Shown here one piece after another: positions 1,975 through 60,947 of a stretch of DNA of 64,000 nt; the stretch's first letter is position 1; the number at the start of each line of letters is the position of its first letter. The DNA is taken from the NCBI GenBank assembly GCA_964436545.1, contig CAYTCJ010000001.1:142392-206391 (forward strand), given 5' to 3'. The translations under genes were made by a program, and so were the position numbers. A model generated the notes under the pieces. That model was not told the origin of the DNA, made no database searches, and saw only the letters and a program-made list of their open reading frames with translations. The stretch is from an uncultured Candidatus Saccharibacteria bacterium. Lineage in GTDB: Bacteria; Patescibacteriota; Doudnabacteria; UBA920.

Positions 1975-3174
1975 ATGTCTAATTTTTGGCAAGATCTACC
2001 CAAACCTATATTTTGTTTAGCGCCCATGGAAGCAGTTACTGACTGCGTGTTTCGGGAGATTTTTGCTAAGTACGGGAATGGGGATGAGTCAAGAAGTATG
2101 AGTCAAGAATTAAGAAGTAGGAATCAGGAATTATGTGAAAGTCAGAAAAGCATTGAACTAAAACCTCAAACCTCAATCTTCAATTCTTTCATTATGTTTA
2201 CAGAATTTGTGAATGTAGACGGTCTTTTACATCCCGAAGGATTTAAAAAATTAAAAATTGATTTGGAGTTTACCGAAAATCAACGTCCCATAGTGGCCCA
2301 GCTTTGGGGCAGGGATCCGGAAAAGTTTTTAAAAGCCTCTCAGTTGGTGGCCAAAATGGGTTTTGATGGTATAGATATAAATATGGGTTGTCCGCAGGAA
2401 AAGGAGATTGCGCAAAAAACTTGTGCTTATTTAATTCGTGAGCCGAATTTAGCAGGGGAGATAATTCAGGCGACTATAGAAGGTGCAAGAGCAAATAACT
2501 CTCCCCAACCCTCCCTTTGGAAAAGGGAGGGAGCTACTGCATCTACTCCCTCTTGTCCAAAGCATGCCCTGAGCCTGCCGAATGGGAAGGGCAAGGGGGA
2601 GTTCTTGCCAGTTTCGGTTAAAACCCGCATTGGCTATTCCAAGGCAGAGGAAATGGAAAACTGGATTTCTCATTTGTTAACCTATCCTATCTCTGCTTTA
2701 ACTTTACATGCCCGAACCAAACAGGAAAAAAGTAAAGTTCCGGCGCATTGGGAAAAAATTAAGGAAGCGGTAAAAATTAGAGATAAGATACAAGAGAAAA
2801 GAGAAAAGGATAAAACACTAATTATTGGTAATGGCGATATTAAGTCGCGTGCCGAAGGCTTGGCACGTATAGCCGAAACCGGGTGCGACGGAGTAATGAT
2901 TGGCAGGGGAGCGTTTGGTAATCCTTGGCTGTTTAGAGCTGATAATTATATCCCCTCAACACAGGAAAAATTACAGGTGATGCTGGAGCATGCCGAACTT
3001 TACGAGAAAACCTATGCCGGATTAAAAAATTTTATTACCATGCGAAAAAACTTTAAAGCCTATGCCAGTGGCTTTGAAGGCTCTTTAACACTTAGAGCTA
3101 AACTTATGGAAACCAATAATACCGGAGAAGTAAAAAATATTATTGAGCAGTTTTTAAGGCAAGGTGAGTTTTAA
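1975..3174 (+). CDS. dus: tRNA-dihydrouridine synthase carrying two internal in-frame insertions
   Basis: Motifs LAPMEAVTD and MIGRGAFGNPWLF; TATAAT at 1963-1968 only 6 nt before the ATG suggests a leaderless start; the ORF extends to 1807 but its N-terminus is non-homologous. Confidence 0.85.
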   Translation: MSNFWQDLPKPIFCLAPMEAVTDCVFREIFAKYGNGDESRSMSQELRSRNQELCESQKSIELKPQTSIFNSFIMFTEFVNVDGLLHPEGFKKLKIDLEFTENQRPIVAQLWGRDPEKFLKASQLVAKMGFDGIDINMGCPQEKEIAQKTCAYLIREPNLAGEIIQATIEGARANNSPQPSLWKREGATASTPSCPKHALSLPNGKGKGEFLPVSVKTRIGYSKAEEMENWISHLLTYPISALTLHARTKQEKSKVPAHWEKIKEAVKIRDKIQEKREKDKTLIIGNGDIKSRAEGLARIAETGCDGVMIGRGAFGNPWLFRADNYIPSTQEKLQVMLEHAELYEKTYAGLKNFITMRKNFKAYASGFEGSLTLRAKLMETNNTGEVKNIIEQFLRQGEF

Positions 3175-5148
3175 TAAACTGGAATCATTCAGTAAGTAAA
3201 GGGTTTTATTTTTTTCATCTACCACAAAATCTTTAAGGTTATTCCAGTTTGGATTGGTAAGGTTATAGACTAAATTACCTTGTTTATTCAATACCGTAAC
3301 CCGTTTTCTGGTTGGTTCCAGTATGTAGAGATTTTTGGTTTCCACAGAAGTAAAGATTTTTTTAGCTCCGGACAAAGGTTCGATTAAATTAGTTTTAAAC
3401 TCAGTCGGGTTGCCTGCATAGTATTTAATTATGCCATTGGGTTTTAGGAAATAAATACTGCCATCAATGGCAAAATCAACAATGGCTTTACTGTCTTCGG
3501 GGTTTAAAGTTAAGGCAATTTCGGGTTTGGCTAGGGTATTGTTTAATACCGCAAAACTCATGAGTTGGCTTTGGCCTATATTTAACATGTACAGTCTTTG
3601 TTTGGTGCTGTAATAGGCTAAATTAACGCTATCGGGCAGGCCGGGAACCGAAGAAGTGTAATTATCGGTTAGAGAGTTATTTTTGCTATCCCATAATTTT
3701 ATACCCAGGCCATCGTACACAGCAGTAAGGGTAGAGGAAAGCCTTTGCGAATAAATGGCTACTGAGTTGAGGGAAATTTCGTTATCTTTTATGGTATGGG
3801 TTTGTTTGTTGTAACTAATGAAGCGATTATTGGCATAGACTGCGAAGTGTTCGGGAAAATCATGTAAATTTTCGGCATTGGCTAAAACGCCCAAATTTTC
3901 GCTGGTAATTTCCAAAGTTTTTTCCAGTTTGCTTTTAACGGCATCTAAGGCGGTAAGCGTATCAGTTAGGAGAGTTTTTTGTGCATCGGTGCGGGGAGTT
4001 ATGTTGTTTAAGGCGTTTAAAGCTGAGTTTAAATATTGTCTGGCAGCCGGATCGTCTTTATACAACAAGGCAGATTCCGCATCACTTAAATTTTTTTGAG
4101 CCACGGTAATGGCTTGCTCGATTTTGGCGTTTGTAACTTTGCGGTCTTTAAAATACAGAGCCACAAAAACTTGGAAAATTAAAGCTACACATAACACACA
4201 AGCGGAAGCAAAGAAAAATTGTTTTTGCGGAGAGTATGACTTAAAATTTTTAAGACTTAACCAGCCTGATTTTTTTACGGACTGAAAAGTTTTAGTGAGC
4301 CAAGGTAGAAAATTAAAAGTACGCAAATTAATTTTTTTGGTTTGGGCGGCAAAATTTTGGAATTGCAGTTTTTTATTGGGATTAACAATGGCCAAAATAA
4401 AACTTTTAAGCTTAAAGCCCCAAGTGGGTTGGTTAATTCCGCTGGTTTCAATATATTCTTCCAGATTTATTTCTTCATCGGGGAGAGTGCCGGCCATGGC
4501 CTCCTCGGCAATAATGGCCCCTAAGGGCACCTTACCGCCCGAATTGGCTTTTAGAATATCTACAATGTGCGCAGTGGATTTTAAGAAGTTTTTTTGATGC
4601 AATAAGCCTTGGAGTCTATCTAGGGCTATGAGGTTAAATAATTGCGAGGTGGACAGTAAAATTAAATCGTTGAGTTGGATTTTGCCGGAAGCGAAGTTTT
4701 CAAAAGTTTTTACCGCATTGGATTTTTCCGGCGAACAAGCAAGGTCGGTTACTTGATTATCTCTAAAGAGCAGAGCGGTAATTTTTCCCACTGTGGAAAT
4801 ATGAAATAGATTGTTTTGTTTAACCGCAATTATACCATTGAATTTTAGGACCCAGTGAGCTAGGCCTAAAGTAATAAGTTTGCTTAATTCTTCGTTAACG
4901 TTGCTGAGGGAGGTTTCAAAAGTCTCCGGTGAGTTGGATTTGTCAAAGGTGCGTTTAATGGCGGAAAGTATGCTTAAACAAATCTTTTTAGAGGGCTCGA
5001 GGAGTTCCGGAGTGGTATCGGTAATTTCGGCTACAATAAAACATTCATTATTTTCGCCTTTAAGCTTTTCTGCCACGACAAAAACAAAGCCGGTATTACC
5101 GTCTTCCGGACCTAATTGAATTTTAGCGACCTGTGATTCCAACTCCAT
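3154..5148 (-). CDS. Hypothetical membrane-anchored protein (~665 aa): N-terminal cytoplasmic domain, one TM helix, large C-terminal beta-rich domain
   Basis: Long ORF with a hydrophobic segment FFFASACVLCVALIFQVFVALYF; start chosen at MELESQ. Confidence 0.55.
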   Translation of the reverse strand: MELESQVAKIQLGPEDGNTGFVFVVAEKLKGENNECFIVAEITDTTPELLEPSKKICLSILSAIKRTFDKSNSPETFETSLSNVNEELSKLITLGLAHWVLKFNGIIAVKQNNLFHISTVGKITALLFRDNQVTDLACSPEKSNAVKTFENFASGKIQLNDLILLSTSQLFNLIALDRLQGLLHQKNFLKSTAHIVDILKANSGGKVPLGAIIAEEAMAGTLPDEEINLEEYIETSGINQPTWGFKLKSFILAIVNPNKKLQFQNFAAQTKKINLRTFNFLPWLTKTFQSVKKSGWLSLKNFKSYSPQKQFFFASACVLCVALIFQVFVALYFKDRKVTNAKIEQAITVAQKNLSDAESALLYKDDPAARQYLNSALNALNNITPRTDAQKTLLTDTLTALDAVKSKLEKTLEITSENLGVLANAENLHDFPEHFAVYANNRFISYNKQTHTIKDNEISLNSVAIYSQRLSSTLTAVYDGLGIKLWDSKNNSLTDNYTSSVPGLPDSVNLAYYSTKQRLYMLNIGQSQLMSFAVLNNTLAKPEIALTLNPEDSKAIVDFAIDGSIYFLKPNGIIKYYAGNPTEFKTNLIEPLSGAKKIFTSVETKNLYILEPTRKRVTVLNKQGNLVYNLTNPNWNNLKDFVVDEKNKTLYLLNDSSLLKLTLP

Positions 5149-6105: not shown

Positions 6106-6159
6106 AGAAGTATTTTTAAAAAGTTTATTGTCGATAATCAAATTGCTATATCTAGTAGC

Positions 6160-6250
6160 CTCGGTGAAGGAATGCCTGCACTCCGAAGCTGTGAATAGGG
6201 GGAGTGCCTGCACTCCGAAGCCTCGGCGAAGGAATGCTTGCACTCCGAAG
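6160..6250. repeat. ~31-bp degenerate tandem repeat x3.5 (core GCCTGCACTCCGAAGC)
   Basis: Seen directly; the inter-core segments are also similar to each other, so this is not CRISPR. Confidence 0.8.
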
Positions 6251-6344
6251 CTTTAGCGTAGGAGTGTGGATAACTTAAAGGTAAACTCTTGTTTACCTTT
6301 ATTTTATTGCAACTTGACGCTAGGTAAACGAAAGTATATTATTT

Positions 6345-6425
6345 AGTTAGCAGTTAGCAGTTAGCAGTTATCAGTTATCAGTTATCAGTTATCAGTTATC
6401 AGTTATCAGTTATCAGCAATCAGCA
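6345..6425. repeat. 7-bp microsatellite (CAGTTAG x3, CAGTTAT x7, CAGCAAT) 50 bp upstream of lexA
   Basis: Seen directly. Confidence 0.9.
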
Positions 6426-6471: not shown

Positions 6472-7089
6472 ATGCCCAAAGAAATTACCAAAAGACAAAA
6501 AGAATTGCTCCAATTTATTATTAGAGAAATACGGGAACACAATTTACCGCCAAGTTTTTCGGAAATGATGGACTATTTTAAATATCGTTCTAAAAACGCC
6601 ATTGCCAAAATTTTAAAAGTTTTAGAACGAGAAGGTTATGTTAAAGTTTCCGGCAAGGCTCGCGGGATTGAAGTGCTCAAAACTTTAGGTGAAAGTTTAG
6701 AAAAGGGTTTGGTTAGCGTTCCACTTTTAGGCAATATCCAAGCCGGTAGCCCGCATTTGGCCGAAGAGCAAGTGGAAGAATGGATTAATTTACCCACTTC
6801 GCTTATTCGGGGCAGACGTGATGTATTTTTGTTAAAAGTGAGGGGAGATAGTATGGTAAATGCCGGAATTTATGAGCACGATTTAGTAATTGTCAGGCCG
6901 GTTAAAGAAGCTAAAAATAACGATATTGTTGTGGCACTGCTTCATGATGAAGCTACAGTAAAACGATTAATTTACGTAAAAAATCGAGCTTACCTAAAAG
7001 CTGAAAACCCTAATTATAAAAATATTTACCCTAAAGAGGAATGGATGATCCAAGGAAAAGTGGTGGGAGTGATTAGACAGCTTGAGTAG
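6472..7089 (+). CDS. lexA: LexA repressor (S24 peptidase)
   Basis: N-terminal wHTH, cleavage-site region VPLLGNIQAG, Ser (GDSM) and Lys (KRLI) catalytic motifs. Confidence 0.9.
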   Translation: MPKEITKRQKELLQFIIREIREHNLPPSFSEMMDYFKYRSKNAIAKILKVLEREGYVKVSGKARGIEVLKTLGESLEKGLVSVPLLGNIQAGSPHLAEEQVEEWINLPTSLIRGRRDVFLLKVRGDSMVNAGIYEHDLVIVRPVKEAKNNDIVVALLHDEATVKRLIYVKNRAYLKAENPNYKNIYPKEEWMIQGKVVGVIRQLE

Positions 7090-10142: not shown

Positions 10143-11024
10143 ATGTTAAGTCTACTAACAATTTTACATTATTTGATTGCTGCAATTGTTGACACTTTGG
10201 ATAAATTTTTAATTTCCAAAAGAAAGATTCAGCCCGTGGCTTATACTTTTTGGAGCGTGATTACAGGTTTAGGAATTTTGGCAGTTTGGCCGTGGGTGTA
10301 CGAAAAAATTAGTTTAGGGCAAATGGGCCTAGACTTACTTTCGGGCGTGTTATTTAGTTTGGCCTTATATGTATTTTTAAAAGCCTTGTCCCAAGGTGAA
10401 GTTTCTCGAGTAATTCCGTTTATATTCGGGTTAGTACCCATATTTGATTTGCTGATTGGAAAAATTGTGGGACAAAATGCTTTATTCAGCCAAGAAATTT
10501 CGGCTATCTGTTTATTGGTACCCGGAGCCTTGATTATTTCCTACAAACCAAATTTTTGGGGAAAGCATTTGGTATTAAAGACCATGTCTGCCTTTTTGTG
10601 GAGCTGTAATTTTGCTTTGTGGCAATTTGTTGCCAAAACCGGAAATACGTTTAACCATTTTATGTTTAATCGGTTAGGGGCGGCCGGAATTTTAATTTTG
10701 TTTTTGGTTTGGCCGTACTACCGAACTTTGGTTTTTAAAAGAGAAACGGAAAGTAAACGTAAAGGCACAGTTGGTTTGTTTTTATTTAAACAAGTTTTGG
10801 GCGGGGCGAATATGATTTTTTTCAGTTGGTTGATTGTAGTGGGTAAAATTCCGTTGGTAAATGCTTTGCAGGGGTTTAGGTATGTGTTTTTATTCTTAGG
10901 AGCGTTATTCCTAAGTAAGAAAATGAAGCATTTATTAGAAGAAGATATTACTTCTAAAGTGGTAATGCAAAAAGTATGTGGGTTAGTTTTGATTATTTTA
11001 GGCACATTAGTATTATTTTTATAA
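10143..11024 (+). CDS. Integral membrane protein (DMT/EamA-like, ~9 TM)
   Basis: Hydrophobicity pattern only. Confidence 0.5.
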   Translation: MLSLLTILHYLIAAIVDTLDKFLISKRKIQPVAYTFWSVITGLGILAVWPWVYEKISLGQMGLDLLSGVLFSLALYVFLKALSQGEVSRVIPFIFGLVPIFDLLIGKIVGQNALFSQEISAICLLVPGALIISYKPNFWGKHLVLKTMSAFLWSCNFALWQFVAKTGNTFNHFMFNRLGAAGILILFLVWPYYRTLVFKRETESKRKGTVGLFLFKQVLGGANMIFFSWLIVVGKIPLVNALQGFRYVFLFLGALFLSKKMKHLLEEDITSKVVMQKVCGLVLIILGTLVLFL

Positions 11025-11028
11025 TCAA

Positions 11029-11189
11029 GGACCTACGCTCTTGCCACTTTAGACTTGGCAGAGCCAAGCCCTTAAAGTGGCTTTGGTCAATTTCTTCGTT
11101 AAAATACTGTGGTTTTTGTCGCCGTAGCTCCACTACGCCTCCAAAAATCCTCGTATTTTGCCTAGAAATTGCCTCAAAAGCGTAAGTCC
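11029..11189 (+). mobile_element. MITE-like structured repeat, copy A (subfamily 1), TIR GGACYTACGC/GCGTAAGTCC
   Basis: Near-identical to copy D; immediately 3' of the stop codon of the preceding + strand gene. Confidence 0.7.
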
Positions 11190-11193
11190 TGAT

Positions 11194-11240
11194 AATAAAG
11201 AATACGGACTTCTGGGACATTCCCAGAAGTCCGTATTCTG
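11194..11240. terminator. Perfect 19-bp palindrome GAATACGGACTTCTGGGA-CAT-TCCCAGAAGTCCGTATTC
   Basis: Seen directly. Confidence 0.5.
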
Positions 11241-11251
11241 GGGGAATATGA

Positions 11252-12232
11252 ATGAAAAAAAATTTGTTAAAATTATTGATTGGTTTTGTGGTAATTTTGG
11301 TTTTTTTATCTTTCTACGCCGGCAAAAAGGCTAAAACAATTGTTTACGGGATTACTTTTAGTCCTTACCAAGCAATTGAGTTAGGTTTAGATTGGCGGGC
11401 AACTTATTTGGCGCTTTTAGATGAAGTTGGCGTTAAACATTTGCGCTTGAGTGCGTATTGGAACCGAGTAGAGCCAAAGGCCGGCGAGTTTGATTGGACC
11501 GATTTGGATTTTCAAATTCAAGAAGCGCAAAAGCGAAAGGCGCAAATTGTTTTAGCCGTAGGCCGGCGTTTACCACGTTGGCCGGAGTGTCATGACCCAG
11601 AATGGCTTGCCAAAAAAGATTTTGCCCCAAGTTTAATGGCTTATGTGGAAGCGGTGGTGAATCGTTATAAAAATAATCCGGCGGTGGTTATGTGGCAGGT
11701 GGAGAACGAAGCCTTTCATTCGGTGTTTGGCATTTGTCCTAAATTAGACACCGCTTTGTTCGATAAAGAGATTGCTTTGGTAAAACAGTTAGACCCCGGC
11801 CGGCCCGTAGTCATTACCGATAGTGGCGAATTATCTTTGTGGCTGAAAGCTGGAAAAAGAGGCGATGCGTTTGGCTCTACTTTGTATCGGCACGTATTTT
11901 CCGATGTGTTTAACCGTTATTGGATAAACTATAATCCGTATTGGCTTTATCGGGCAAAAGGTGGTTTAATGAAATTATTGAATGGAAAAAAAGAATTAAT
12001 GATTATTGAGCTTCAGGCCGAACCCTGGACTACTAAGGGAATTTTAGGCACCTCCATTGAAGAGCAGTTTAAAACCATGAGTATGGAAAAGTTTAAAACC
12101 ATACTTTCCGTAGGCAAAGCGATTGGTTTTGAAAAACAGTATTTATGGGGTGGGGAATGGTGGTATTGGATGAAGCAAAACGGGCACCCGGAATTCTGGG
12201 AAACAGCAAGAATATTAATGAACAAAAATTAA
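11252..12232 (+). CDS. Membrane-anchored TIM-barrel glycoside hydrolase (GH5/GH113/GH42-like)
   Basis: N-terminal TM segment; WQVENE motif with catalytic Glu. Confidence 0.6.
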   Translation: MKKNLLKLLIGFVVILVFLSFYAGKKAKTIVYGITFSPYQAIELGLDWRATYLALLDEVGVKHLRLSAYWNRVEPKAGEFDWTDLDFQIQEAQKRKAQIVLAVGRRLPRWPECHDPEWLAKKDFAPSLMAYVEAVVNRYKNNPAVVMWQVENEAFHSVFGICPKLDTALFDKEIALVKQLDPGRPVVITDSGELSLWLKAGKRGDAFGSTLYRHVFSDVFNRYWINYNPYWLYRAKGGLMKLLNGKKELMIIELQAEPWTTKGILGTSIEEQFKTMSMEKFKTILSVGKAIGFEKQYLWGGEWWYWMKQNGHPEFWETARILMNKN

Positions 12233-12239
12233 AAAATTA

Positions 12240-12400
12240 GGACTTCCGCTCTTGCCACTTAAACTTCGGCAGAGCCGAAGTTCTAAAGTGGCTTTGGTCA
12301 ATTTCTTCGTTAAAATGCTCCGTTATTTGTCGCCGTAGCAAAACTACGGCTCCAAATATACTCGCATTTTGCCTCGAACTTGACTCAAAAGCGTAAGTCC
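12240..12400 (+). mobile_element. MITE-like structured repeat, copy B (subfamily 2)
   Basis: 161 bp, 1 mismatch to copy C; directly follows a stop codon. Confidence 0.7.
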
Positions 12401-12483
12401 TAAAATGACAAAAACGACGAAAGCTTTGTCTATTAGTAGCATACTTTTTGTCAATTTTGTTCATTTGTGTAAATTTTGTCAAT

Positions 12484-13245
12484 ATGAATAACATTGTTGG
12501 TTTGGATATTGGCGGAACTAAAATCAATGGCGTGGTGGTTAGTGGAAAAACCATTTTACAAGAACTTACAGTGGCAACCCCCAAAAGTTGGCCGGAATTT
12601 AAAGTTGCCATTAAAGCCATGGTTAAGCAGTTAAATGCAGGGTATAAAATTTTCGCAGTGGGAGTAGGGATCCCTGGGGCAATAAATAACCACGGCAAAG
12701 TGCTTTATGCTCCCAACTTACCCTATTTAGTCAACCGAAATTTATTAGGTTTTTTACAAACCTTAAGCGTTAAAAAGATAAGTATTGAGAACGATGCCAA
12801 CTGTTTTGCTTTGGCGGAAGCTTATTTGGGGCAAGGACAAGGTTTAAAAAATTTTATAGGCATAACTTTGGGCACGGGGATTGGCGGAGGTTTAATTTCC
12901 AATGGGCAACTGTATGTTGGATTGCATGGGAGCGCATGCGAAGTCGGGCATATGATGGCAGACGAGCGCAATACCTATGAGGAATTATTCCAAATTTATC
13001 GGGAACAAAATAATTATTCGGCTTTGGGGAAATTATTAGGCCGACTGTGGGCGGATATTTATAACTTAATAGATGTGGAAGCGATTATTTTAGGCGGGAG
13101 TGTAACCAAATCCGCCAATCAATTTTTGGCTTATGCTTTGGCGGAATCACAACAGAGAATTTTAAATAAGCGTATCCGGCCCAAAATAATTATTTCTAAA
13201 TTAAATAATGCCGGCTCTTTAGGCGCGGCATTATTACCTTTATAG
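12484..13245 (+). CDS. ROK-family sugar kinase (glucokinase-like)
   Basis: IVGLDIGGTK; DANCFALAEAYLGQG; GSACEVGH. Confidence 0.85.
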   Translation: MNNIVGLDIGGTKINGVVVSGKTILQELTVATPKSWPEFKVAIKAMVKQLNAGYKIFAVGVGIPGAINNHGKVLYAPNLPYLVNRNLLGFLQTLSVKKISIENDANCFALAEAYLGQGQGLKNFIGITLGTGIGGGLISNGQLYVGLHGSACEVGHMMADERNTYEELFQIYREQNNYSALGKLLGRLWADIYNLIDVEAIILGGSVTKSANQFLAYALAESQQRILNKRIRPKIIISKLNNAGSLGAALLPL

Positions 13246-13405
13246 GACTTCCGCTCTTGCCACTTAAACTTCGGCAGAGCCGAAGTTCTAAAGTGGCTTT
13301 GGTCAATTTCTTCGTTAAAATGCTCCGTTATTTGTCGCCGTAGCAAAACTACGGCTCCAAATATACTCGCATTTTGTCTCGAACTTGACTCAAAAGCGTA
13401 AGTCC
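13245..13405 (+). mobile_element. MITE-like structured repeat, copy C (subfamily 2)
   Basis: Its first base is shared with the TAG stop of the ROK kinase. Confidence 0.7.
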
Positions 13406-13428
13406 TACTTTGTTAAAAAAAATAGGGT

Positions 13429-15110: not shown

Positions 15111-15518
15111 TCTTGTCATCCCGTCCGCCAGCTGGCGGATTGATGCGGGATCCAGTTTATTTGATCAAGTTATTATATAAGTCTTGCCATTCAGGATTTT
15201 GTTTTTCAATTAAATCCAATTTCCATTTTCTTTTCCACTTTTTAAGCTGTTTTTCTCTTTCAATCGCAGATATTACTTCATTAGTTTGTTCATAATATAC
15301 TAAGGTGTGACATTTGTATCTCTTTGTAAAACCATCTGCTAAATTGTTTTTGTGTTGCCATGTTCTTTTTATTAAATCATTTGTGATCCCAATGTACAAA
15401 GTGCCGTTTCTTTTGCTTGCCATAATATATACATAGTAGTTTTTTTGATTTTTATACTTCATTGGGTGTTTTGTGTCTGGATCCCGCATCTCGGATGCAC
15501 TCGTGCGGGATGACAAGA
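15111..15518 (-). mobile_element. Inverted-repeat-bounded element carrying a small GIY-YIG nuclease ORF
   Basis: Ends 15111-15155 and 15477-15518 share TCTTGTCATCCCG...GATGCGGGATCCAG in inverted orientation; each end is also an internal hairpin. Confidence 0.65.
15157..15462 (-). CDS. GIY-YIG (UPF0213/COG2827-like) nuclease, ~101 aa
   Basis: YYVYIMASKRNGTLYIGITNDLIKRTWQHKNN...YYEQ; the ORF as listed extends to 15567 through the right repeat. Confidence 0.75.
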   Translation of the reverse strand: MKYKNQKNYYVYIMASKRNGTLYIGITNDLIKRTWQHKNNLADGFTKRYKCHTLVYYEQTNEVISAIEREKQLKKWKRKWKLDLIEKQNPEWQDLYNNLIK

Positions 15519-15541
15519 AGGACAAGGAAGGGAGCTGGTAG

Positions 15542-16373: not shown

Positions 16374-18212
16374 CTATTTATCTTTTAATTTCGGTAGATC
16401 CAACTTTATATGCAATTCTTTAAGTTGTTTTTCTTCCACAGTTCCGGGGGCGGACATCATTACATCTTCGGCACTGCCATTTTTAGGAAAAGCAATAACT
16501 TCTCTAATGTTATTTTCGTTCTCTAAGAGCATTAACAGTCTGTCTATCCCTGGCGCAAAACCGCCGTGTGGGGGTGCGCCGTATTCAAACGCACGAATCA
16601 TCCCGCCAAATTTTTCATCTACAGTTTTTTTGTCATAACCGACCAGTTCAAAGGCTTTATACATAATTTCCGGTTTGTAGTTGCGAATGGCGCCACTGGA
16701 AAGCTCGAGGCCATTGGCAATAATGTCGTATTGGTAAGCTTTAATAGTTAACGGATCGTGGTTGGTTAAAGCTTCCAGTCCGCCTTGAGGCATAGAAAAT
16801 GGATTGTGCATAAAATCCAATTTGCCTTCTTTATTCAGTTCATACATAGGAAAATCGGTAATCCACGCCCAAGCAATTAGGTTGGGATCTTTTAGATTAA
16901 ACAGATCACCCAAATGATGGCGAAGTTTGCCTAAAACTTTGTTAACCACTTCGCGACTGTCAGCCCCAAAGAAAATTATGTCGCCGGTTTGGGCTTGGGT
17001 TTTGGAAATTATTACTTGAGTTTCGTCTGGAGAGAGAAACTTAAGAATGGGGGAACGTAATTTTATTCCATCAACTATCACCCCTCCCTGACCCTCCCCA
17101 TCAGATGGGAGGGAATTATTTTCGCATACAATATACGCCAGACCGCCGGCGCCTTCTTTTTTAACAAATTCGGTAAGGTCATCAATTTGCGAGCGGGTGA
17201 GTTTGGCTCCACCTTTACAGCAAATCGCTTTTACCGCTCCACCACTTTTTAAGGCATTACCAAATACGCTAAAGCCGGTGGTTTTAAGCTCAGCCGATAA
17301 ATCTATAAGTTTCATTTCAAATCTTAAGTCCGGTCTGTCACTCCCGTATTCTTCCATAGCTGTAAGGTAGGGTAGGCGAGGAAAAGGTTTTTGCAAACAT
17401 TTTTTTTGCGCAAATTCTTCGGTGAGTTTAATAAACAAAGGTTCCATTTCGTTAAAGACCACCTCGTCTTTGTCCGCAAACGCAATTTCTAAATCTAATT
17501 GATAAAATTCACCCGGACTGCGGTCGGCTCTGGGGTCTTCGTCTCTAAAACAGGGTGCAATTTGAAAATATTTTGGCACTCCGCTTACCATTAACAATTG
17601 CTTAAATTGTTGAGGGGCTTGCGGGAGAGCGTAAAATTTTCCCGGGTGCAGGCGGGAAGGCACTAAATAGTCGCGGGCGCCTTCCGGACTGCTGGAGGTT
17701 AAAATGGGCGTGGTAATTTCTATAAAGCCTTGGGCATCCATCCAGTCGCGAATGAATTTAATCATTTTATGCCTTTTAAAGAGCATGGTTTGCATTTTTT
17801 CTCTTCGCAAATCCAAAAAGCGATATTTGAGACGAATGTCCTCGTTGGCTAATTGGTTTTGTTCGCCATGTCCGTGGGCGACCTGAAAGGGGAGGGGCTT
17901 TGAGGAATTTAAAAGTTGTAAGTTGTAAGTTGTAAGTTCTATGTTCCCAGTGGGAAGATTTGGATTTTTGGTTGCATCACTACGTTCTACCACTTGACCA
18001 TCTACTCTAATAACAAATTCATCTCTACATTTATCAGCCACAGAAAAAGCCTCAGCTTGGTCCGGATGAATGGCTAATTGGACCAAACCAGTATGATCTC
18101 TAAGATCAATAAAAATAACGCCTCCGTGGTCTCTTCGGGAGTTTACCCAACCGGATAAACTAACGGTTTGACCAACAAGCTTTGGCGTTTCTATGCAAAG
18201 TGTTCTTTTCAT
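16374..18212 (-). CDS. aspS: Aspartyl-tRNA synthetase
   Basis: GGVIFIDLRDHTGLVQ; FRDEDPRADRSPGEFYQLDLE; GGAPPHGGFAPGIDRLLMLL. Confidence 0.95.
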   Translation of the reverse strand: MKRTLCIETPKLVGQTVSLSGWVNSRRDHGGVIFIDLRDHTGLVQLAIHPDQAEAFSVADKCRDEFVIRVDGQVVERSDATKNPNLPTGNIELTTYNLQLLNSSKPLPFQVAHGHGEQNQLANEDIRLKYRFLDLRREKMQTMLFKRHKMIKFIRDWMDAQGFIEITTPILTSSSPEGARDYLVPSRLHPGKFYALPQAPQQFKQLLMVSGVPKYFQIAPCFRDEDPRADRSPGEFYQLDLEIAFADKDEVVFNEMEPLFIKLTEEFAQKKCLQKPFPRLPYLTAMEEYGSDRPDLRFEMKLIDLSAELKTTGFSVFGNALKSGGAVKAICCKGGAKLTRSQIDDLTEFVKKEGAGGLAYIVCENNSLPSDGEGQGGVIVDGIKLRSPILKFLSPDETQVIISKTQAQTGDIIFFGADSREVVNKVLGKLRHHLGDLFNLKDPNLIAWAWITDFPMYELNKEGKLDFMHNPFSMPQGGLEALTNHDPLTIKAYQYDIIANGLELSSGAIRNYKPEIMYKAFELVGYDKKTVDEKFGGMIRAFEYGAPPHGGFAPGIDRLLMLLENENNIREVIAFPKNGSAEDVMMSAPGTVEEKQLKELHIKLDLPKLKDK

Positions 18213-19139: not shown

Positions 19140-20039
19140 TTGTCAAAGTTAAAAATCCCCAGCATAATTATTTTTGTAACCGTCTTAATTTATTTTTTAA
19201 GTTTGGTTTTTTCCGGTCGCTGGGTTTTACCTCAAATTATATCTTTCGGAGCGCTATCGATTCACTATTACGGAATAGTTATGGCTGTGGCAGTGGGTTT
19301 TGGTTATAAATTGGCCATGCACCGAACGCAACTTTATGAAATAGCTTTACCTTGGGCGGAAAAATTATTTTTTTGGGTAATTATTGGCGGATTGGTTGGA
19401 GCTAGAATTTATCATGTTTTTTCATCGGTTAGTTATTATTCTTTGCACCCGATGGAGATTTTAAAAGTTTGGCATGGCGGTTTGTCTATTTACGGCGCTT
19501 TGATTGGTGGATTTCTGGCTTTGCTTCTGTGGAAAAAACTTACAACTTACCTGCCTTGTCGGCAGACAGGCAACTTACCTGCCTTGTCGGCAGACAGGCA
19601 ACTTACAACACTTCTAAATTGGCTAACTCCCTCGCTCATTCTCGGTCAAATTATTGGTCGGTTTGGAAATTTATTTAATTACGAAGTTTATGGTTACCCG
19701 ACTAATTTACCTTGGAAGTTATTTGTGCCCAATGAATTTAGAGTTTTGGGTTATGAAGCTTTTGCTTTCTATCACCCGTGGTTTTTATATGAACAAATCG
19801 GCTTAATTTTAATTTTCATCCTCTTTAAGGTGTATTTTAATTTAAAATCCGAGCGCTTGTTTGTTTACTACGTTTTATTGTATAATTTAATGAGATTTGG
19901 TCTGGAATTTTTAAGAATTGATAGCCATTTCATTGGGCCTTTTAGGCAAAATGCTGTGGTGAGTTTATGCTTTGCGGTGGGGGCTTTGGGTTTGATAATT
20001 TATTGGAGAGTTTTAAAATCAGCTAACAATGCGTCTTGA
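19140..20039 (+). CDS. lgt: Prolipoprotein diacylglyceryl transferase with an in-frame hairpin insertion
   Basis: YYGIVMAVAVGFGY; WHGGLSIYGALIGG; GRFGNLFNYEVYGYPTNLPW. Confidence 0.85.
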   Translation: MSKLKIPSIIIFVTVLIYFLSLVFSGRWVLPQIISFGALSIHYYGIVMAVAVGFGYKLAMHRTQLYEIALPWAEKLFFWVIIGGLVGARIYHVFSSVSYYSLHPMEILKVWHGGLSIYGALIGGFLALLLWKKLTTYLPCRQTGNLPALSADRQLTTLLNWLTPSLILGQIIGRFGNLFNYEVYGYPTNLPWKLFVPNEFRVLGYEAFAFYHPWFLYEQIGLILIFILFKVYFNLKSERLFVYYVLLYNLMRFGLEFLRIDSHFIGPFRQNAVVSLCFAVGALGLIIYWRVLKSANNAS

Positions 20040-20781
20040 TTTAACCAAATATCATAAATTTAGCGCCGGGGCCTTAAGCGCCTTGTATGTTTGGGTGCTG
20101 TATAATTGGACTACCCCGGTACCTATTTTTAGGTTTCTTTTGCCCGCATTTTTATGCATCTTGGGACTAACAGCGTATTATAATTTAAAATATTTAACCA
20201 CAGGGCAAGCTAAAAATGTTTGGCCCATTTTGCGAGTGGCGCTTTTACAGTCAGCCGGGTTTTTATTATTTTTTGTTATGCCTAGCGCGCCGGCCCGAAT
20301 AATGTTTTTGATGATCTCTTTCATTTTTTTGTTTATTTCGGAATATTTAATTTTAGATTTTTCGGAAAATATTTTATTTAACGAAGTGATTTTAATTTCC
20401 TTTGGGTTTTTTTACGGGTTTAACGGACTCTTGTGGAATTTTCCGACTTTTAATTATATCGGTCTCTTGGCCTTATTCGTAGTGTTAAGTTTATTAACTC
20501 GGTGTTTTTATGAATTTGCACCTTTAACCGCTAAGGCGAAATGGATAAACGCTTTGGTTTTGGCTTTTTTATCGGCACAAATTTTTTGGGCTTGTTTGTA
20601 TTTACCTTTTCATTTTTCGGCATTAGCGGTGATTGGGTTTAACTTGTATTATTTATTAGTCGGCTTAAATTATTTTTATATTTTTAATACTTTAACGGAA
20701 AAGAAATTTAAATTTTATGTCGGTTTGTCCGGAGTGTGCATTTTACTGGTAATGCTCACCACGCCTTGGAAAATTTTATAA
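20029..20781 (+). CDS. Hypothetical polytopic membrane protein
   Basis: ORF with ~7 hydrophobic helices. Confidence 0.5.
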   Translation: MRLDLTKYHKFSAGALSALYVWVLYNWTTPVPIFRFLLPAFLCILGLTAYYNLKYLTTGQAKNVWPILRVALLQSAGFLLFFVMPSAPARIMFLMISFIFLFISEYLILDFSENILFNEVILISFGFFYGFNGLLWNFPTFNYIGLLALFVVLSLLTRCFYEFAPLTAKAKWINALVLAFLSAQIFWACLYLPFHFSALAVIGFNLYYLLVGLNYFYIFNTLTEKKFKFYVGLSGVCILLVMLTTPWKIL

Positions 20782-20785
20782 TCAG

Positions 20786-21010
20786 GGCTTACGCTCTTGC
20801 CACTTTAGACTTGGCAGAGCCAAGCCCTTAAAGTGGCTTTGGTCAATTTCTTCGTTAAAATACTGTGGTTTTTGTCGCCGTAGTTCCACTACGGCTCCAA
20901 AAATCCTCGTATTTTGCCTGGATCGTGATGATTTGGCTTGAGTTCGGGCTCAGCCCGAACTTTAAAGCCAAATCAAGCTCTTGTCGAAATTGCCTCAAAA
21001 GCGTAAGTCC
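20786..21010 (+). mobile_element. MITE-like structured repeat, copy D (subfamily 1) with an extra 62-bp nested hairpin
   Basis: As copy A plus GATTTGGCTTGAGTTCGGGCTCAGCCCGAACTTTAAAGCCAAATC inserted before the 3' TIR. Confidence 0.7.
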
Positions 21011-34490: not shown

Positions 34491-34528
34491 TTTTAGCTAA
34501 AATTTTAAAAATCAAAAAATTATTTTTT

Positions 34529-34558
34529 TTGCTTCATTGACGGCCGTCAATGAAGCAA
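34529..34558. other. Hairpin TTGCTTCATTGACGG/CCGTCAATGAAGCAA preceded by T8
   Basis: Perfect 15-bp palindrome; not a canonical terminator on either strand. Confidence 0.4.
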
Positions 34559-34589
34559 AGAACTATTTTAAGAAAAAAATTAATATAAA

Positions 34590-35285
34590 AATGTTAAAGC
34601 CCGAACGAGTCCTCCTAGGTTCGTTCGGGCTTTTGGGTTTGTGGGAGGTATTTCAACCCCCCGTTATAATACAACCACCTCGAACGAGAATCGTTCGGGG
34701 GGCAAATCGTGGTGCGGGGGCGGGGACATCGTCTCCCACGACCGAAAGGCCGTGGCAGACAGTGTCTGCCCCATAAAAAACAAAAAGTTGTCGGAGACGC
34801 AATTTAGTGGAAGGGGTTGCCGGAATGCCAGCCGGAGGCCTACGGCCTCCAAAAGTTCAGCCTCGGGCCGAACTCCTTTGTCCGCCAAGAGGCGAACAAA
34901 GCTAGATCTGCCCGCGTGGGGCCATATATCCGGCGCGAGGCAGGGCTTAAGCACCGGCGTGCGTGCAAATACCTCCTCGCAGTTTACCATCCACGTTTGG
35001 ATGGCGTTGCCCCAATGCCACGCTCGCACAACCGCGAGGTGGCGCTCCACTACATTGAGCGCGAAGTCAAACTTCCGACGCTCAATTGCGCCTTCTCCTG
35101 CCACCAAGTCCAGTGGGGTGGTTGGGACGAGGTCGTCCTTTTCCACTACTTGCTGGGCGAGCGACAGGAGGTGGTCCTTGCGCGGGGGGTTTCCGCCGTT
35201 ATGGACCAATAACGGCGGAAGCTCAAACTTTTTTTCTCCGGGAAGTTCAAGAAAAACCCGGTCGCCGATTTGAGTCGGCATTTTT
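34590..35285. other. GC-rich (~60%), hairpin-dense island in an AT-rich genome; a possible 206-aa ORF on the minus strand (34664..35283) or a large structured RNA
   Basis: Abrupt composition shift; perfect palindrome GCCCGAACGA...TCGTTCGGGC at 34597-34628; CCCCCC/GGGGGG stems; both strands are open, as expected from GC richness. Confidence 0.4.
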
Positions 35286-35454: not shown

Positions 35455-35584
35455 CTTTGAATTACAGAACTAAACTCTTTTGTCATTCCGGCCCCGAGCC
35501 GGAATCTATGGCTTGATAAATAAGAGAATGTTAGATCCTGAAACAAGTTCAGAATGACAGTAAAAGGACGTCTGTAATTCAAAG
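35455..35584. mobile_element. 130-bp MITE-like element with nested inverted repeats
   Basis: Outer TIR CTTTGAATTACAGA (35455-35468) / TCTGTAATTCAAAG (35571-35584); inner TGTCATTC/GAATGACA; internal hairpin ATTCCGGC-CCCGA-GCCGGAAT. Confidence 0.65.
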
Positions 35585-39884: not shown

Positions 39885-41336
39885 ATGGGTTTAGTTTTTC
39901 AAAATATTTTTTGGCTTACAGCTTCAAGGGCAATTGCCCTTGTTTTGCTGTTTTTAGCTTATACTCAATTATTTAGATATTTAGGACCTTTTGGCAACGG
40001 ACAATACCAATTTGTGTTGTCTTATGTTTTAATTTTTTCCACGGTGGTGGATTTTGGCGTTCAGCAATTCATTACCAAAAAAATTACCGAAGAGCCGGAG
40101 AAAACCACGGAATATTTTAAGAGTTTTTTTAAATTTGAAATTTTGGCTTCCGGATTTTTATTTGTCCTGTTAATGAGTATTGCTTACTTAAAGGCTTTTG
40201 AAGCCCCATTAATTTCCGCTATTTGGGTTACGGGTTTGGGAATGGTAGTTAATGGTTTATGCTATCCGTATTTGGCAGTGTTAACCGCCAAGCAAGATTT
40301 AAAAAAAGTGGCAATCATCAATTTTTTAAATTCCTTGGTTAATGTAAGTGTGATTTTTCTGGCGATTTGGCTAAAAAAATACATAGTTTTTTTAGCCAGC
40401 ATCCAACTGATTTTTGGCTTAATGGATTGGGTGTTGTATAGGATGTTTGTAAAAAAATATTTATCAACCCCCCCTACCCCCCCTTTAGACAAAGGGGGGG
40501 AGGAAGATCGTGCTTTAGACAAAGTTGATAAGTTAGGGGGGGCTGTTGTAATTTTAAATATTCTTAAATCTGCGTGGCCTTTTGCTTTACTGGTCGGTTT
40601 TAGCGCAATTTACAACCGCATTGACGTAGTGATAATTACCGGCATGCTCGGGTTTGCGCAAACCGGAATTTACACTTCGGCCTATAAGTTTTTTGATTTG
40701 CTCAATTTTTTCCCCGCTTCGGTGTCGCACGCGCTTTTTCCCGCGTTGTCCGGCTTTATGGCCACAGGTAAAATTGCCGAGGTAAAAATCACTTTGGAAA
40801 AATATTTAAGACTTATGATAGCTATTGCTGTGCCTATGGCTGTGGGTGGAGCTATTTTATCAGGACAATTAATTTTACTCGTGGCCGGAGAACGGTTTTT
40901 GGAAGCGGGTAAAATTTTAGCGATTCTCATTTGGGCCATAGCAATACTATTTATTTATATTCCTGTAAATTCTTTAGTAATTTCTCAGTTAACCAAAAAA
41001 GCAGTTGTGATTACCGGAGTAAATGTTATACTGAATATTGTGGGGAATATAGTCTTGTTGCCCATTTATGGGATTAAGGGTTCGGCAATAATGACAGTGG
41101 TTAGCGAGTTAGTCCAAGGTGGTTTTTATTTTTATTTGGTTAAAAAAAATATTACGGATTTCGCTTTTTTCTCTCTGCTGTGGAAACCCGCTTTGGCCAG
41201 TGCGATTATGGGTGTAATGGTTTGGCAAGTTAGAGAAGTAAATTTATTAACGGGTGTTTTTCTTGGGGTGGTAAGTTACACAGTAAGTTTGTATTTACTT
41301 AAGTTTTTTAAGGAAATTAATATAAAATTTTTTTAA
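39885..41336 (+). CDS. Polysaccharide flippase (MOP/Wzx-like), 12-14 TM
   Basis: Hydrophobicity pattern and genomic context; carries a G/C-hairpin insertion. Confidence 0.65.
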   Translation: MGLVFQNIFWLTASRAIALVLLFLAYTQLFRYLGPFGNGQYQFVLSYVLIFSTVVDFGVQQFITKKITEEPEKTTEYFKSFFKFEILASGFLFVLLMSIAYLKAFEAPLISAIWVTGLGMVVNGLCYPYLAVLTAKQDLKKVAIINFLNSLVNVSVIFLAIWLKKYIVFLASIQLIFGLMDWVLYRMFVKKYLSTPPTPPLDKGGEEDRALDKVDKLGGAVVILNILKSAWPFALLVGFSAIYNRIDVVIITGMLGFAQTGIYTSAYKFFDLLNFFPASVSHALFPALSGFMATGKIAEVKITLEKYLRLMIAIAVPMAVGGAILSGQLILLVAGERFLEAGKILAILIWAIAILFIYIPVNSLVISQLTKKAVVITGVNVILNIVGNIVLLPIYGIKGSAIMTVVSELVQGGFYFYLVKKNITDFAFFSLLWKPALASAIMGVMVWQVREVNLLTGVFLGVVSYTVSLYLLKFFKEINIKFF

Positions 41337-43559: not shown

Positions 43560-44653
43560 TAATAGGTATTGAAGCCGAACGAGCCAACACTTCGCAAAAA
43601 ACCGGAGTGGAGCATTATGCAAAACAATTAATTCTTCATTTGGCCAAACTTGACACTATAAATACATATATCTTGTATTTAAGGACTGAGCCGGAAGAAT
43701 GGTTTTTAGCTTTGCCGAAAAATTTTAAAGTTAAGGTTATGCCTTTTCCCGTATTTTGGACCCAAATTCGGTTATCGTGGGAAATGTTTTTCCGCCCTCC
43801 GGATGTGCTATTTGTGCCGGCTTCCGCTTTGCCTTTGGTGCACCCTAAAAATTCCGTAATTACTATTCACGATGTGGCTTGGCGTTATTTTCCGGAAAGT
43901 TTTACCGCGTTTATGAAATGGTTTTTAGAGTGGTCCACTCAATTGGCAGTTAAGCGGGCCGGTAAAATTATTGCGGTTTCCGAAAGTACTAAAAAAGATA
44001 TTTTAAAATTTTATAGAGTTAATGATAGAAATATTCAAGTAATTTATCACGGTTACGAGACATCCTCCCCCCTAGAGGGAGAGGGGAGGGTGAGGGGGCT
44101 ACCCGAAAAATACGTTTTATTTTTATCCACGCTTCAACCGAGAAAAAATTTAGCCGGTTTAATTGATGCTTTTAAATTACTAAAAATTGAGCACCCGGAT
44201 TTGCCTCATAAGTTAGTGGTGGTGGGTAAAGCGGGCTGGAAGTATGAGAGTATCATACAAAAAATTAAAGCCAACTCAGACACTGTTATATACTTAAGTT
44301 ATGTGAGCGATGCAGACCGGTTAGCCGTATTGTCGCAAGCGGATTTGTTAGTTTTACCTTCTTTGTACGAAGGTTTTGGCATGCAAATTCTAGAAGCTTT
44401 TGCCTTGCAAGTGCCGGTAGTTTTATCTAACACTTCCAGTTTGCCCGAGGTGGCCGGCGAAGCTGGGCTGTATTTTGATCCAAAAAAACCTCAGGATATT
44501 AAGCAGGCAATTGCCAGTGTGTTATTTGATAAGTCGTTGGCGGAAAATTTAACCGCCAAAGGGAAGGCACGATTAAAATTATTTAGTTGGGAAAAGTGCG
44601 CCCAAGAAACTTTAAATATTTTTTTGTCATTCCGTCCGCCAGCTGGGGATTGA
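43556..44653 (+). CDS. GT4-family glycosyltransferase
   Basis: EGFGMQILEAFALQVPVVLSNTSSLPEVAG; contains a G/C-hairpin insertion and a C-terminal 'TGTCATTCCG' hairpin. Confidence 0.8.
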   Translation: MIIGIEAERANTSQKTGVEHYAKQLILHLAKLDTINTYILYLRTEPEEWFLALPKNFKVKVMPFPVFWTQIRLSWEMFFRPPDVLFVPASALPLVHPKNSVITIHDVAWRYFPESFTAFMKWFLEWSTQLAVKRAGKIIAVSESTKKDILKFYRVNDRNIQVIYHGYETSSPLEGEGRVRGLPEKYVLFLSTLQPRKNLAGLIDAFKLLKIEHPDLPHKLVVVGKAGWKYESIIQKIKANSDTVIYLSYVSDADRLAVLSQADLLVLPSLYEGFGMQILEAFALQVPVVLSNTSSLPEVAGEAGLYFDPKKPQDIKQAIASVLFDKSLAENLTAKGKARLKLFSWEKCAQETLNIFLSFRPPAGD

Positions 44654-44663
44654 TCCGGAATCT
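44625..44663. repeat. Solo hairpin repeat TTGTCATTCCGTCCGCCAGCTGGGGATTGATCCGGAATC overlapping the GT4 stop
   Basis: Near-identical to the left terminal hairpin of the GIY-YIG element at 15111-15155. Confidence 0.7.
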
Positions 44664-44671
44664 ATTCGCCT

Positions 44672-56859: not shown

Positions 56860-57249
56860 ATGGCTCGTATTGCAGGTATAAACATTCCCAACGAAAAAAC
56901 CATTGTGGCATCCTTACCTTATATTTACGGGGTGGGTTGGCCTTTGGCGCGAAAAATTTTAAATGAGGTAAAAGTTAGTCCTCATAAAAGAACTAAAGAT
57001 TTAACCGAAGTGGAATTAAACAAGATTCGCGATTATATTGAAAAGAGTTTTAAAGTTGAAGGGGAGTTAAAGCAACAAGTCTTGTTAAACATTAAAAGAC
57101 TTAAAGAAATTTCCGCTTATCGTGGTATTAGGCATATGCGGGGTTTACCGGTTAGAGGTCAACGAACTAAAACCAATTCCCGCACCCGCCGAGGTAATGT
57201 AAGAAAAACCGCAGGCTCTGGCAGAAAATCCGCTTCGGAAAAGACCTAA
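56860..57249 (+). CDS. rpsM: 30S ribosomal protein S13
   Basis: [10 protein letters not shown]... Confidence 0.95.
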
Positions 57250-57252
57250 TTA

Positions 57253-57300
57253 GGATTTACGCTCTTGCCACTTAAACTTCCGCAGAGCCGAAGTTCTAAT
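57253..57300 (+). mobile_element. Truncated copy E of the MITE-like repeat (5' TIR plus first hairpin only)
   Basis: GGATTTACGCTCTTGCCACTTAAACTTCCGCAGAGCCGAAGTTCTAA right after the rpsM stop. Confidence 0.6.
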
Positions 57301-60914: not shown

Positions 60915-60947
60915 ATCCCCTCCGCTATATTGGAGGGGATTTTTTTA
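60915..60947 (+). terminator. Rho-independent terminator ATCCCCTCC-GCTATAT-TGGAGGGGAT followed by T7
   Basis: Seen directly. Confidence 0.8.

Follow-up and report, generated by a model that had tools for sequence, protein, structure and literature searches.

We analysed a 64-kb stretch of DNA (hereafter the window) from an AT-rich bacterium of the Patescibacteria, or candidate phyla radiation (CPR), close to Doudnabacteria, whose genome is about 90% coding. Five genes of the window, encoding a dihydrouridine synthase (dus), an aspartyl-tRNA synthetase (aspS), a flippase and two glycosyltransferases (GT4 and GT2), carry short palindromes built of C and G tracts. The original prediction had placed five such hairpins in these genes, in frame, and all five are found where it put them, inside long open reading frames (ORFs) with Pfam matches on both sides; a second insert in the GT2 gene, which is not of the C/G-tract kind, had been overlooked. 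The inserts have a GC content of 52–65% or more in a window of 38% GC. The features are listed below, with z-scores for the folding of individual elements.

2494–2604, plus strand: composite in-frame insert in dus (Dus residues ~174–210), encoding NNSPQPSLWKREGATASTPSCPKHALSLPNGKGKGEF; seen in the sequence, the fold and the alignment of relatives.
2449–2673, minus strand: shadow ORF opposite dus, not a gene.
17070–17114, plus strand (gene on the minus strand): in-frame insert in aspS, in a loop of the GAD insertion domain, encoding SLPSDGEGQGGVIVD; seen in the sequence and in relatives; folding z −1.66.
40465–40545, plus strand: in-frame element in the flippase (Polysacc_synt) gene, encoding TPPTPPLDKGGEEDRALDKVDKLGG; folding z −4.13.
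44063–44098, minus strand: C/G-tract hairpin with a third G tract in the linker of GT4, encoding TSSPLEGEGRVRG; weak fold, z −1.25.
46884–46937, plus strand: second in-frame palindromic insert of the GT2 gene, encoding KSRTVDEFLQNSDSGTGM; folding z −4.36, 0/200 shuffles.
47004–47057, plus strand: in-frame element in the same GT2 gene, encoding CNPSLTLPIKGREEEGV; folding z −3.68, 0/200 shuffles.

Anatomy of the inserts

The units are polar and read, in order, (TG)CAAC, a C tract (A), 2–3 nucleotides (nt), a C arm (B), a loop of 3–8 nt, a G arm (B′) and an A-rich tail, with an outer G tract (A′) sometimes present and closing a second stem. They stand singly (25–45 nt), paired or nested, and relatives carry in addition a 141-nt element of several hairpins. 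Copies in the window start with CAAC or TGCAAC, span 25–80 nt and form hairpins. The motif singled out by the original prediction, searched here as CCCTCCC-N(3–20)-GGGAGGG, is far above chance: five matches occur in the window against 0.01 expected, a number that was reached in 0 of 100 shuffles.

The dus gene (ORF 1975–3174) matches the Pfam Dus family (E 1e-54) in two stretches. After a C tract at 2503–2506, its insert holds the two adjacent hairpins that had been predicted; the stem of the first, CCCTCCCTTT-GGA-AAAGGGAGGG at 2509–2531, is longer than had been described (10 bp), and the second, CTCCCTCTTGTCC...GGGCAAGGGGGAG, proves imperfect, with one mismatch and one bulge. Written at its full span (CTCCCTCTTG...CAAGGGGGAG, 2546–2601), the second hairpin begins fourteen bases past the first, and its loop holds a nested small hairpin, an extra ~30 nt with GCCCT..AGGGC. 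Because the GC-rich palindrome is stop-free, the minus-strand shadow ORF at 2449–2673 stays open, in line with the earlier claim that the palindrome creates such an ORF, and a further one crosses the insert at 2466–2630. An independent Logan assembly (L170) contains the identical 111-nt insert, which is therefore not an assembly artefact.

In an AlphaFold model of Dus with a mean predicted local distance difference test score (pLDDT) of 80, residues 177–207 are coil with pLDDT below 50, flanked by a helix (157–172) and a strand (213–218) with values of ~94–97. The insert is thus predicted to form a disordered loop, a favourable outcome for the check, proposed with the original prediction, of whether inserts map to surface loops. 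Loops leading from helix to strand in a TIM barrel lie on the face opposite the catalytic face, which is where we infer the insert to be placed. PDB entry 1vhn, from a profile search with Dus, has no extra residues at the insertion point, and a single-sequence search of PDB with Dus at E 1e-20 gave no match. A second variable site of dus, after FAKYG (2066–2195), carries an AT-rich, tandem-like insert (AAGAAGTAGGAATCAAGAATT twice) which is not a hairpin (fold z +0.54) and is predicted by AlphaFold to be disordered as well (residues 52–70, pLDDT below 50). This insert is of a different class from the hairpin elements; at the same site, the relative L081 has GC hairpins in its place.

The aspS hairpin, CCCCTCCCTGACCCTCCCC-ATCAGAT-GGGAGGG at 17081–17113, is laid out on the plus strand as C tract A (17081–17088), TGA, C arm (17092–17099), loop and G arm (17107–17113), and it adds ~12 residues to the GAD domain loop compared with PDB entry 4wj3. 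The flippase element, CCCCCCCTACCCCCCCTTT-AGAC-AAAGGGGGGG with a distal G7 (40468–40543), reads CAAC, C7, TA, C7TTT-AGAC-AAAG7, a spacer with a second CTTTAGACAAAG, and an outer G7. The GT4 hairpin, CCTCCCC...GGGGAGG at 44064–44089, has CGG polarity on the plus strand and lies in the inter-domain linker between Glyco_transf_4 and Glycos_transf_1 (Pfam), two Rossmann-like domains. The GT2 element, whose hairpin is CCCCTCCCTTACCCTCCCC-ATAAA-GGGGAGGG at 47009–47040, is composed of TGCAAC, C tract A, TTA, C arm, ATAAA, G arm, AAGAAGAA and part of an outer G tract, GGGGTGGAG. The second insert of the GT2 gene is a palindrome of another sequence class, TCCCGTACC..GACGAATTTT-TAC-AAAATTCGGAC..GGTACTGGGA; it is missing in the syntenic relative L168 and most orthologues and present in L165–L167 at 96% identity.

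DNA repeats with rapid turnover at shared sites

The 21-mer CCCCTCCCTnACCCTCCCCAT occurs exactly in both aspS (17081) and GT2 (47009), two occurrences against none expected. It sits on the same DNA strand although aspS is a minus-strand gene and GT2 a plus-strand gene, and it is translated in opposite senses, as SLPSDGEGQGG in aspS and NPSLTLPIKGRE in GT2, which identifies it as a DNA repeat and not a protein motif. To set this in a wider frame, we took a census of perfect homopyrimidine/homopurine hairpins in 1.55 Mb of Patescibacteria loci with a GC content of at most 0.5. C-arm-first hairpins outnumber G-arm-first hairpins by 67 to 10, with identical base composition in the two classes, and a third flanking tract accompanies 35 of the 67 and none of the 10. 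In the non-redundant set, long ORFs contain 46 of the 67 copies and the other 21 are intergenic (for example L085, 2787–2808), so that 31% of copies occupy the ~9% of sequence that is intergenic; polarity relative to the sense strand is CCG in 14 and CGG in 9, and the stem begins at codon phase 0, 1 or 2 in 16, 23 and 7 copies, respectively. The hairpins are therefore repeats at the DNA level, which occur in either orientation and in every frame, both in genes unrelated to one another and between genes. Given the intergenic share, the use of all codon phases and the polarity of 14 to 9, coding copies are best viewed as survivors of selection and not as the outcome of a targeting preference.

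Exact-stem censuses were used because C/G-tract sequence is too low in complexity for a covariance model; such a model, for which 22 units were aligned, was dropped when the observed register gave 78% pairing and a slide by +1 gave 86%. Rfam has no family matching the inserts. Not every C-first hairpin is an intragenic element, as illustrated by ATCCCCTCC-gctatatt-GGAGGGGAT followed by a T run at 60915–60940 (plus strand, intergenic), which lies just past an ORF ending at 60910 and is probably an intrinsic terminator, not a family member.

These observations bear on the idea that lineage-specific, Pro/Gly-rich loops have been selected at the protein level and that the palindromy of the DNA is incidental. 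Flexible P...G peptides are indeed encoded at surface loops, as this idea would have it, but the same DNA in different frames and orientations gives different peptides, intergenic copies exist, and the two orientations of the flippase element (described below) encode unrelated peptides. The frame and orientation data largely refute protein-level adaptation, to which we give almost no credence.

The inserts examined keep the reading frame in every case and hold no in-frame stop codon; their lengths are all multiples of three (+42, +42, +45, +45, +48, +51, +69, +72, +87, +108 and +138 nt). This regularity speaks to a further possibility, that the segments are removed or bypassed in an intron-like or intein-like manner or by translational bypass, and that no protein ever includes them. 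The rRNA genes of CPR bacteria are known to hold intervening sequences, which counts in favour of removal. So does a report from an AT-rich yeast mitochondrion (Magnusiomyces), in which GC-rich palindromes in genes are said to be bypassed, reportedly described by Lang et al. in 2014. Sequences that are removed are not under frame constraint, however, and the frame-keeping, stop-free inserts contradict removal or bypass on this account; they are also far too short for inteins, and we consider this explanation very improbable.

Comparison with relatives supports the original view of lineage-specific insertions for dus, aspS, GT2 and the flippase and fails to do so for GT4, where the window shows no gain in length over a 65%-identical orthologue. 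Homologues of Dus place the host in the Patescibacteria, nearest to Doudnabacteria. The relatives listed in a scan of a genome collection with the Dus alignment were all at most 49% identical, and the close relatives compared here (L-numbered loci) were taken from protein look-ups. Dus orthologues range from 303 to 462 amino acids (aa) in length, and 30 that were aligned have at least four positions at which inserts of 0–70 residues come and go; 12 of the 30 have an insert at the site of 2494–2604. In a DNA alignment, L081 (74% aa identity) has no insert at this site, L084 (87%) has one hairpin (+45 nt) and L083 (76%) has two, and the window has both hairpins of L083 together with the ~30 extra bases nested in the second loop. 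The aspS site, compared in 23 metagenomic relatives of 65–83% identity, is empty (57 nt) in 13 and filled in 10 and in the window, with inserts of +42 to +138 nt. Nine of the aspS inserts were read at the DNA level and all are hairpins, most of them unlike one another; among them are double hairpins with C/G tracts, a single hairpin that starts with the G arm, and two unrelated palindromes. The GT2 site (47004–47057) is empty in the closest relative, L165, and filled in the window (+45 nt), L166 (+42) and L168 (+48). The flippase element (+69 nt in the window, free energy (dG) −41 kcal/mol) is missing from L168, and the GT4 hairpin is kept with changes in L166.

Since the sites in dus, aspS and GT2 are unoccupied in close relatives, the inserts are, judged from these alignments, secondary insertions. 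The same few protein positions are re-used repeatedly by different elements. Homologous segments at the same positions in unrelated lineages had been named in advance as evidence to the contrary; inserts do occur at the same positions in unrelated lineages, but they are non-homologous, which marks the positions as hot spots and not as an ancestral segment.

Near-identical elements also recur in different genes. The second hairpin of the aspS insert of L085 is the dus insert of L084 at 36 of 37 nt, in opposite orientation, and the match covers the non-palindromic TGCAAC end that is also the start of the GT2 element of the window. The 141-nt element is found in the dus gene of L180 and in the aspS gene of L096, with 85% identity between the two copies (120/141 nt, E 4e-26); it has 11-bp terminal inverted repeats (CTCCAACCACC/GGTGGTTGGAG) and four to five internal hairpins (dG ~−100 kcal/mol), whose stems are kept by paired, compensatory substitutions between the two genomes. 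The peptide that it encodes (TTPSANAATPP.QGGEAP..) is also found in the GT2 orthologues P0210 and P0226 and in other Dus orthologues. Exact matches of 23–25 nt link L096 to L099 and L100 to L168, and another Dus hot spot, in L081, contains the unit ACCCTCCCCAT-ATCTT-GGGGAGGGAA, which is essentially the aspS/GT2 unit of the window.

A large share of the variation stems from change in place: copies become inverted, duplicate an arm with its loop, or acquire hairpins nested inside their loops. At the flippase site of the syntenic L166, the whole element is present in the opposite orientation, with a match of 36 of 37 nt on the reverse strand that spans the asymmetric tract, the loop (AGAC versus GTCT) and the internal CTTAGACAAAG repeat. 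The inverted segment is bounded by the outer C and G runs, and both orientations keep the frame. L166 also shows tandem arm-plus-loop duplications, which would generate the third tract.

The presence and sequence of the inserts can further be set against a selected cis-acting structure in mRNA or DNA, be it the hairpins themselves, tracts capable of forming G-quadruplexes or i-motifs, or GGAGG/CCTCC pairs resembling Shine–Dalgarno and anti-Shine–Dalgarno sequences, with roles in translational pausing between folding units, mRNA stabilisation, or the control of transcription or replication. Such a role would fit the persistence of GT2 stems across genomes with 65–78% protein identity, the compensatory changes in the 141-nt element, the position of inserts between structural units (the helix-to-strand loop of Dus, the inter-domain linker of GT4) and the four C runs in CCCCTCCCTGACCCTCCCC, which, as read off the sequence, have G-quadruplex potential. 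Against it, presence and absence vary among the closest relatives, with 13 aspS genes lacking an insert; sequences at one site are mutually unrelated, occur in both orientations and can be inverted; the position relative to gene starts and ends is not constant; and copies are relatively enriched in intergenic DNA. We regard a selected cis-acting structure as improbable. Triplex formation by tract A was rejected on strand polarity, by reasoning only.

Probable movement, change in place and other repeats of the window

We think it probable that the inserts represent a family, or families, of selfish hairpin modules that resemble Rickettsia palindromic elements (RPEs) or the GC clusters of yeast mitochondria, that persist only as in-frame copies in permissive loops, and that are remodelled in place. 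The terms selfish and mobile are drawn from the dispersed near-identical copies. Modules would spread selfishly by a copy mechanism and, with ~90% of the genome coding, would frequently land in genes, where selection would purge copies unless they are a multiple of three in length, stop-free and in a permissive loop; C and G tracts would be tolerated in any frame because they cannot encode a stop. Template switching between the arms during replication would then keep the stems perfect and flip the spacer, slippage would make the third tract, and the encoded Pro/Ser/Leu...Gly/Glu/Arg peptides would be passengers without a function of their own. Two studies (PMC8604942, PMC8794818) describe how the arms of an inverted repeat are homogenised, and its spacer inverted, when replication switches template from one arm to the other, a process that could plausibly preserve perfect stems in the absence of selection.

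Several points weigh against such mobile modules. The low complexity of the C/G tracts weakens statistics of both pairing and similarity, and shifted-register controls pair almost equally. No transposase domain was detected by Pfam, and no insertion sequence (IS) was found, in the ~35 ORFs scanned in the window, which covers 64 kb of the genome. Target-site duplications could not be defined at the filled/empty pairs (dus, aspS, GT2 and the 141-nt element). The stems and 5′ part of the GT2 element are conserved across genomes with 65% protein identity, which could mean functional constraint and not neutrality. Several inserts at the aspS hot spot, such as those of L094 (TTCCCTTGAAGATTCCCAT...) and L086 (GTAGTGCAGG...), are palindromes that occur only once in the data and may be of local origin; that of L086 alone starts with GTAG, and its sequence is unrelated to the window copies. 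Finally, the GT4 linker of L168 has the same length as that of the window, with an AT-rich purine tract aligned with the G tracts, so that the GT4 hairpin is not a clean insertion and fits an origin in place better.

The last two points also favour an alternative in which all hairpins originate in place: template switching or slippage would copy a nearby tract reverse-complemented, nothing would move, and similarity across loci would be low-complexity convergence. The tandem arm-plus-loop duplications and the inversion of the flippase spacer would likewise be accounted for, and the creation and maintenance of hairpins by template switching are documented in the same two studies. However, the dus and aspS inserts identical at 36 of 37 nt including non-palindromic ends, the 120 of 141 nt shared by the dus and aspS inserts of two genomes, the exact 21-mer with its asymmetric tract A and spacer in two genes of the window, and the common CAAC/TGCAAC 5′ end are not expected on this account. 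Template switching alone cannot explain near-identical copies in different genes, because it does not move sequence to an unlinked gene, and by the same alignments convergence does not explain them either. A purely local origin may thus explain some unique palindromes and the GT4 hairpin, not the near-identical copies, and as a general account we judge it unlikely.

A more far-reaching version of the mobile modules is lineage-wide hairpin-homing in Patescibacteria, in which small, modular GC-rich hairpins would place copies of themselves in hairpin loops and at a few structurally permissive hot spots of essential genes, with GIY-YIG nucleases as candidate mobilisers, and would then flip and recombine in place, by a mechanism unlike that of any known transposon, repetitive extragenic palindromic (REP) sequence or Rickettsia element. 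We put this forward as a speculative and rather doubtful scenario; if true, it would amount to a continuous, lineage-wide supply of new disordered protein loops in minimal genomes.

GIY-YIG nucleases of 85–100 aa are abundant in Patescibacteria, and two are encoded in the window. One, an 88-aa ORF (62259–62525, 267 nt), is enclosed in the P3 loop of a bacterial class A RNase P RNA on the minus strand (61824–62284; Rfam 58.6 bits, E 3.6e-17, below the gathering score), which by eye extends to ~62560 (region 61824–62562) and whose P3 stem is a perfect 15-bp repeat, CCCCCCACUUUCUAU/AUAGAAAGUGGGGGG, then GAGGAAAGUCCG. This arrangement is 95–97% identical at the nucleotide level in L172–L177, where flanking genes are 60–88% identical. 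The gene was considered as an autonomous parent of the hairpins and rejected: its 15-bp repeat (C6.../...G6), which resembles the flippase arms, is the P3 stem of the RNase P RNA (Rfam, E-value mode), and the conservation is for this reason that of an RNA gene. We found no paper on a GIY-YIG ORF in the P3 loop of RNase P RNA in the literature. The second gene (101 aa, 15160–15462, minus strand) lies between mutually inverted hairpin repeats (15111–15519), CTTGTCATCCCG..TGCGGGATCCAG and CTGGATCCCGCA..CGGGATGACAAG, with a 14-nt exact inverted repeat, a layout that resembles a small mobile cassette. Exact-protein look-ups of both genes gave no additional genomic places. Small GIY-YIG genes in L044, L096 and L178 have 10–11-nt inverted repeats tight at both ends, and another in L071 (~4405–4810) has on both sides a direct repeat, ATTGGGAGATCGTCTAACGG, like the 5′ end of a tRNA gene, which suggests an insertion at a tRNA gene with duplication.

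Other repeats are present in the window. A second dispersed hairpin family, TTGTCATYCCG-TCCGCCAGCTGGCGGA-TTGATSCGGRATC, has copies at 44622–44666, 35478–35510 and 15111–15156; the copy at the 3′ end of GT4 supplies the last codons (LSFRPPAGD) and the stop codon, and copies also flank the GIY-YIG gene at 15160–15462. An intergenic repeat of ~180 nt with strong hairpins (GCCACTTAAACTTCGGCAGAGCCGAAGTTCTAAAGTGGC) occurs in 4–5 copies of 72–97% identity between sugar-metabolism genes and after rpsM (11020–11203, 12231–12414, 13236–13419, 20776–20959 and 57244–57299). Within the lgt ORF (19140–20039), positions 19543–19606 are a perfect 28-nt tandem repeat of 2.3 copies with the palindromic unit CCTGCCTTGTCGGCAGACAGG. 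Upstream of lexA (6472–7089), a 30-nt tandem repeat of small hairpins (GGAGTGCCTGCACTCC) and a 7-nt repeat, AGTTATC in ten copies, occupy 6157–6251 and 6345–6416. The region 34506–35250 reaches 67% GC and folds very strongly (dG to −35 kcal/mol per 60 nt); it contains only overlapping ORFs with no Pfam match, has no Rfam match even in E-value mode, and may be an undescribed structured RNA.

Relation to known palindromic repeats and implications

The likeness to RPEs noted in the original prediction holds as an analogy and does not extend to membership of the Rickettsia families. According to PMC10969869 and PMC1166351, which summarise the work of Ogata et al. (2000, 2002), RPEs are palindromic families scattered through coding and non-coding DNA in a reduced genome that is small and AT-rich. 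The elements described here are alike in being multi-copy and dispersed in coding and non-coding DNA, in having many in-frame copies at fold-compatible positions of unrelated housekeeping genes, and in having no known transposase; RPEs measure ~100–150 nt, compared with 25–80 nt for units of the window, and the 141-nt element of relatives matches them in size. The host here belongs to another phylum, and we claim neither sequence relationship nor membership. The present units differ from RPEs in being built of C and G tracts far GC-richer than the genome, in their modularity (single, paired or nested), and in turning over rapidly, with the same hot spots re-used by different elements, and being inverted in place.

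The GC clusters of yeast mitochondria, such as GC42 (PMC4478555), are mobile by an unknown mechanism, with endonuclease genes proposed as helpers. Like the elements of the window, they are GC-rich hairpins of ~30–60 bp in an AT-rich genome, with substitutions concentrated in the loops, and the merging and shuffling of their units are comparable to the nesting and pairing seen here (PMC4478555). They are, however, mitochondrial and mostly intergenic, whereas two thirds of the copies here lie in genes, in frame, and their putative AG target-site duplication (AG and TAG were tested) has no counterpart at our filled/empty pairs. REP sequences and REPINs (PMC3733652) are likewise imperfect palindromes of 20–40 bp, GC-rich relative to the genome, polar (a 5′ tag and a hairpin) and often paired; they differ in being extragenic, compared with 46 of 67 copies inside long ORFs here, and in carrying a GTAG or CGTC tag where window copies carry CAAC or TGCAAC. 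They co-occur with a gene for a REP-associated tyrosine transposase (RAYT), none of which is present among the ~35 window ORFs scanned with Pfam. Miniature inverted-repeat transposable elements share terminal inverted repeats with the 141-nt element, and the window units are themselves hairpins; here no target-site duplication was found at the filled/empty pairs, and no parent IS with matching ends was found in the scanned ORFs of the window. Hairpins shaped by template switching (PMC8794818, PMC8604942) show the arm homogenisation and spacer inversion that would explain why the stems are perfect and why the flippase element is flipped, and their same-length changes fit GT4.

In the literature we found no account of palindromic elements lying in frame in genes of Patescibacteria or CPR bacteria; coverage was incomplete, and this does not amount to proof of novelty. 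The principle is known from Rickettsia; what appears to be new is that the elements are small and modular in their C/G-tract anatomy, that hot spots are used repeatedly and turn over rapidly, that elements are inverted in place, and that they are spread across a superphylum.

CPR genomes are tiny and gene-dense and are thought to be poor in selfish DNA, and yet repeats are found here inside essential genes, including aspS, dus and genes of the cell envelope. Sites turn over fast, and the same elements recur from gene to gene in many lineages, which carries what is known from Rickettsia over to a vast branch of uncultivated bacteria. Such elements explain the large variation in length among orthologues such as Dus, and they can disturb marker-gene alignments, gene calling (through shadow ORFs) and metagenome assembly. 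The hot spots, inversions and near-identical copies offer handles on how short hairpins move, a question shared with the Rickettsia elements and the mitochondrial GC clusters, and the elements themselves readily supply proteins with new disordered loops.

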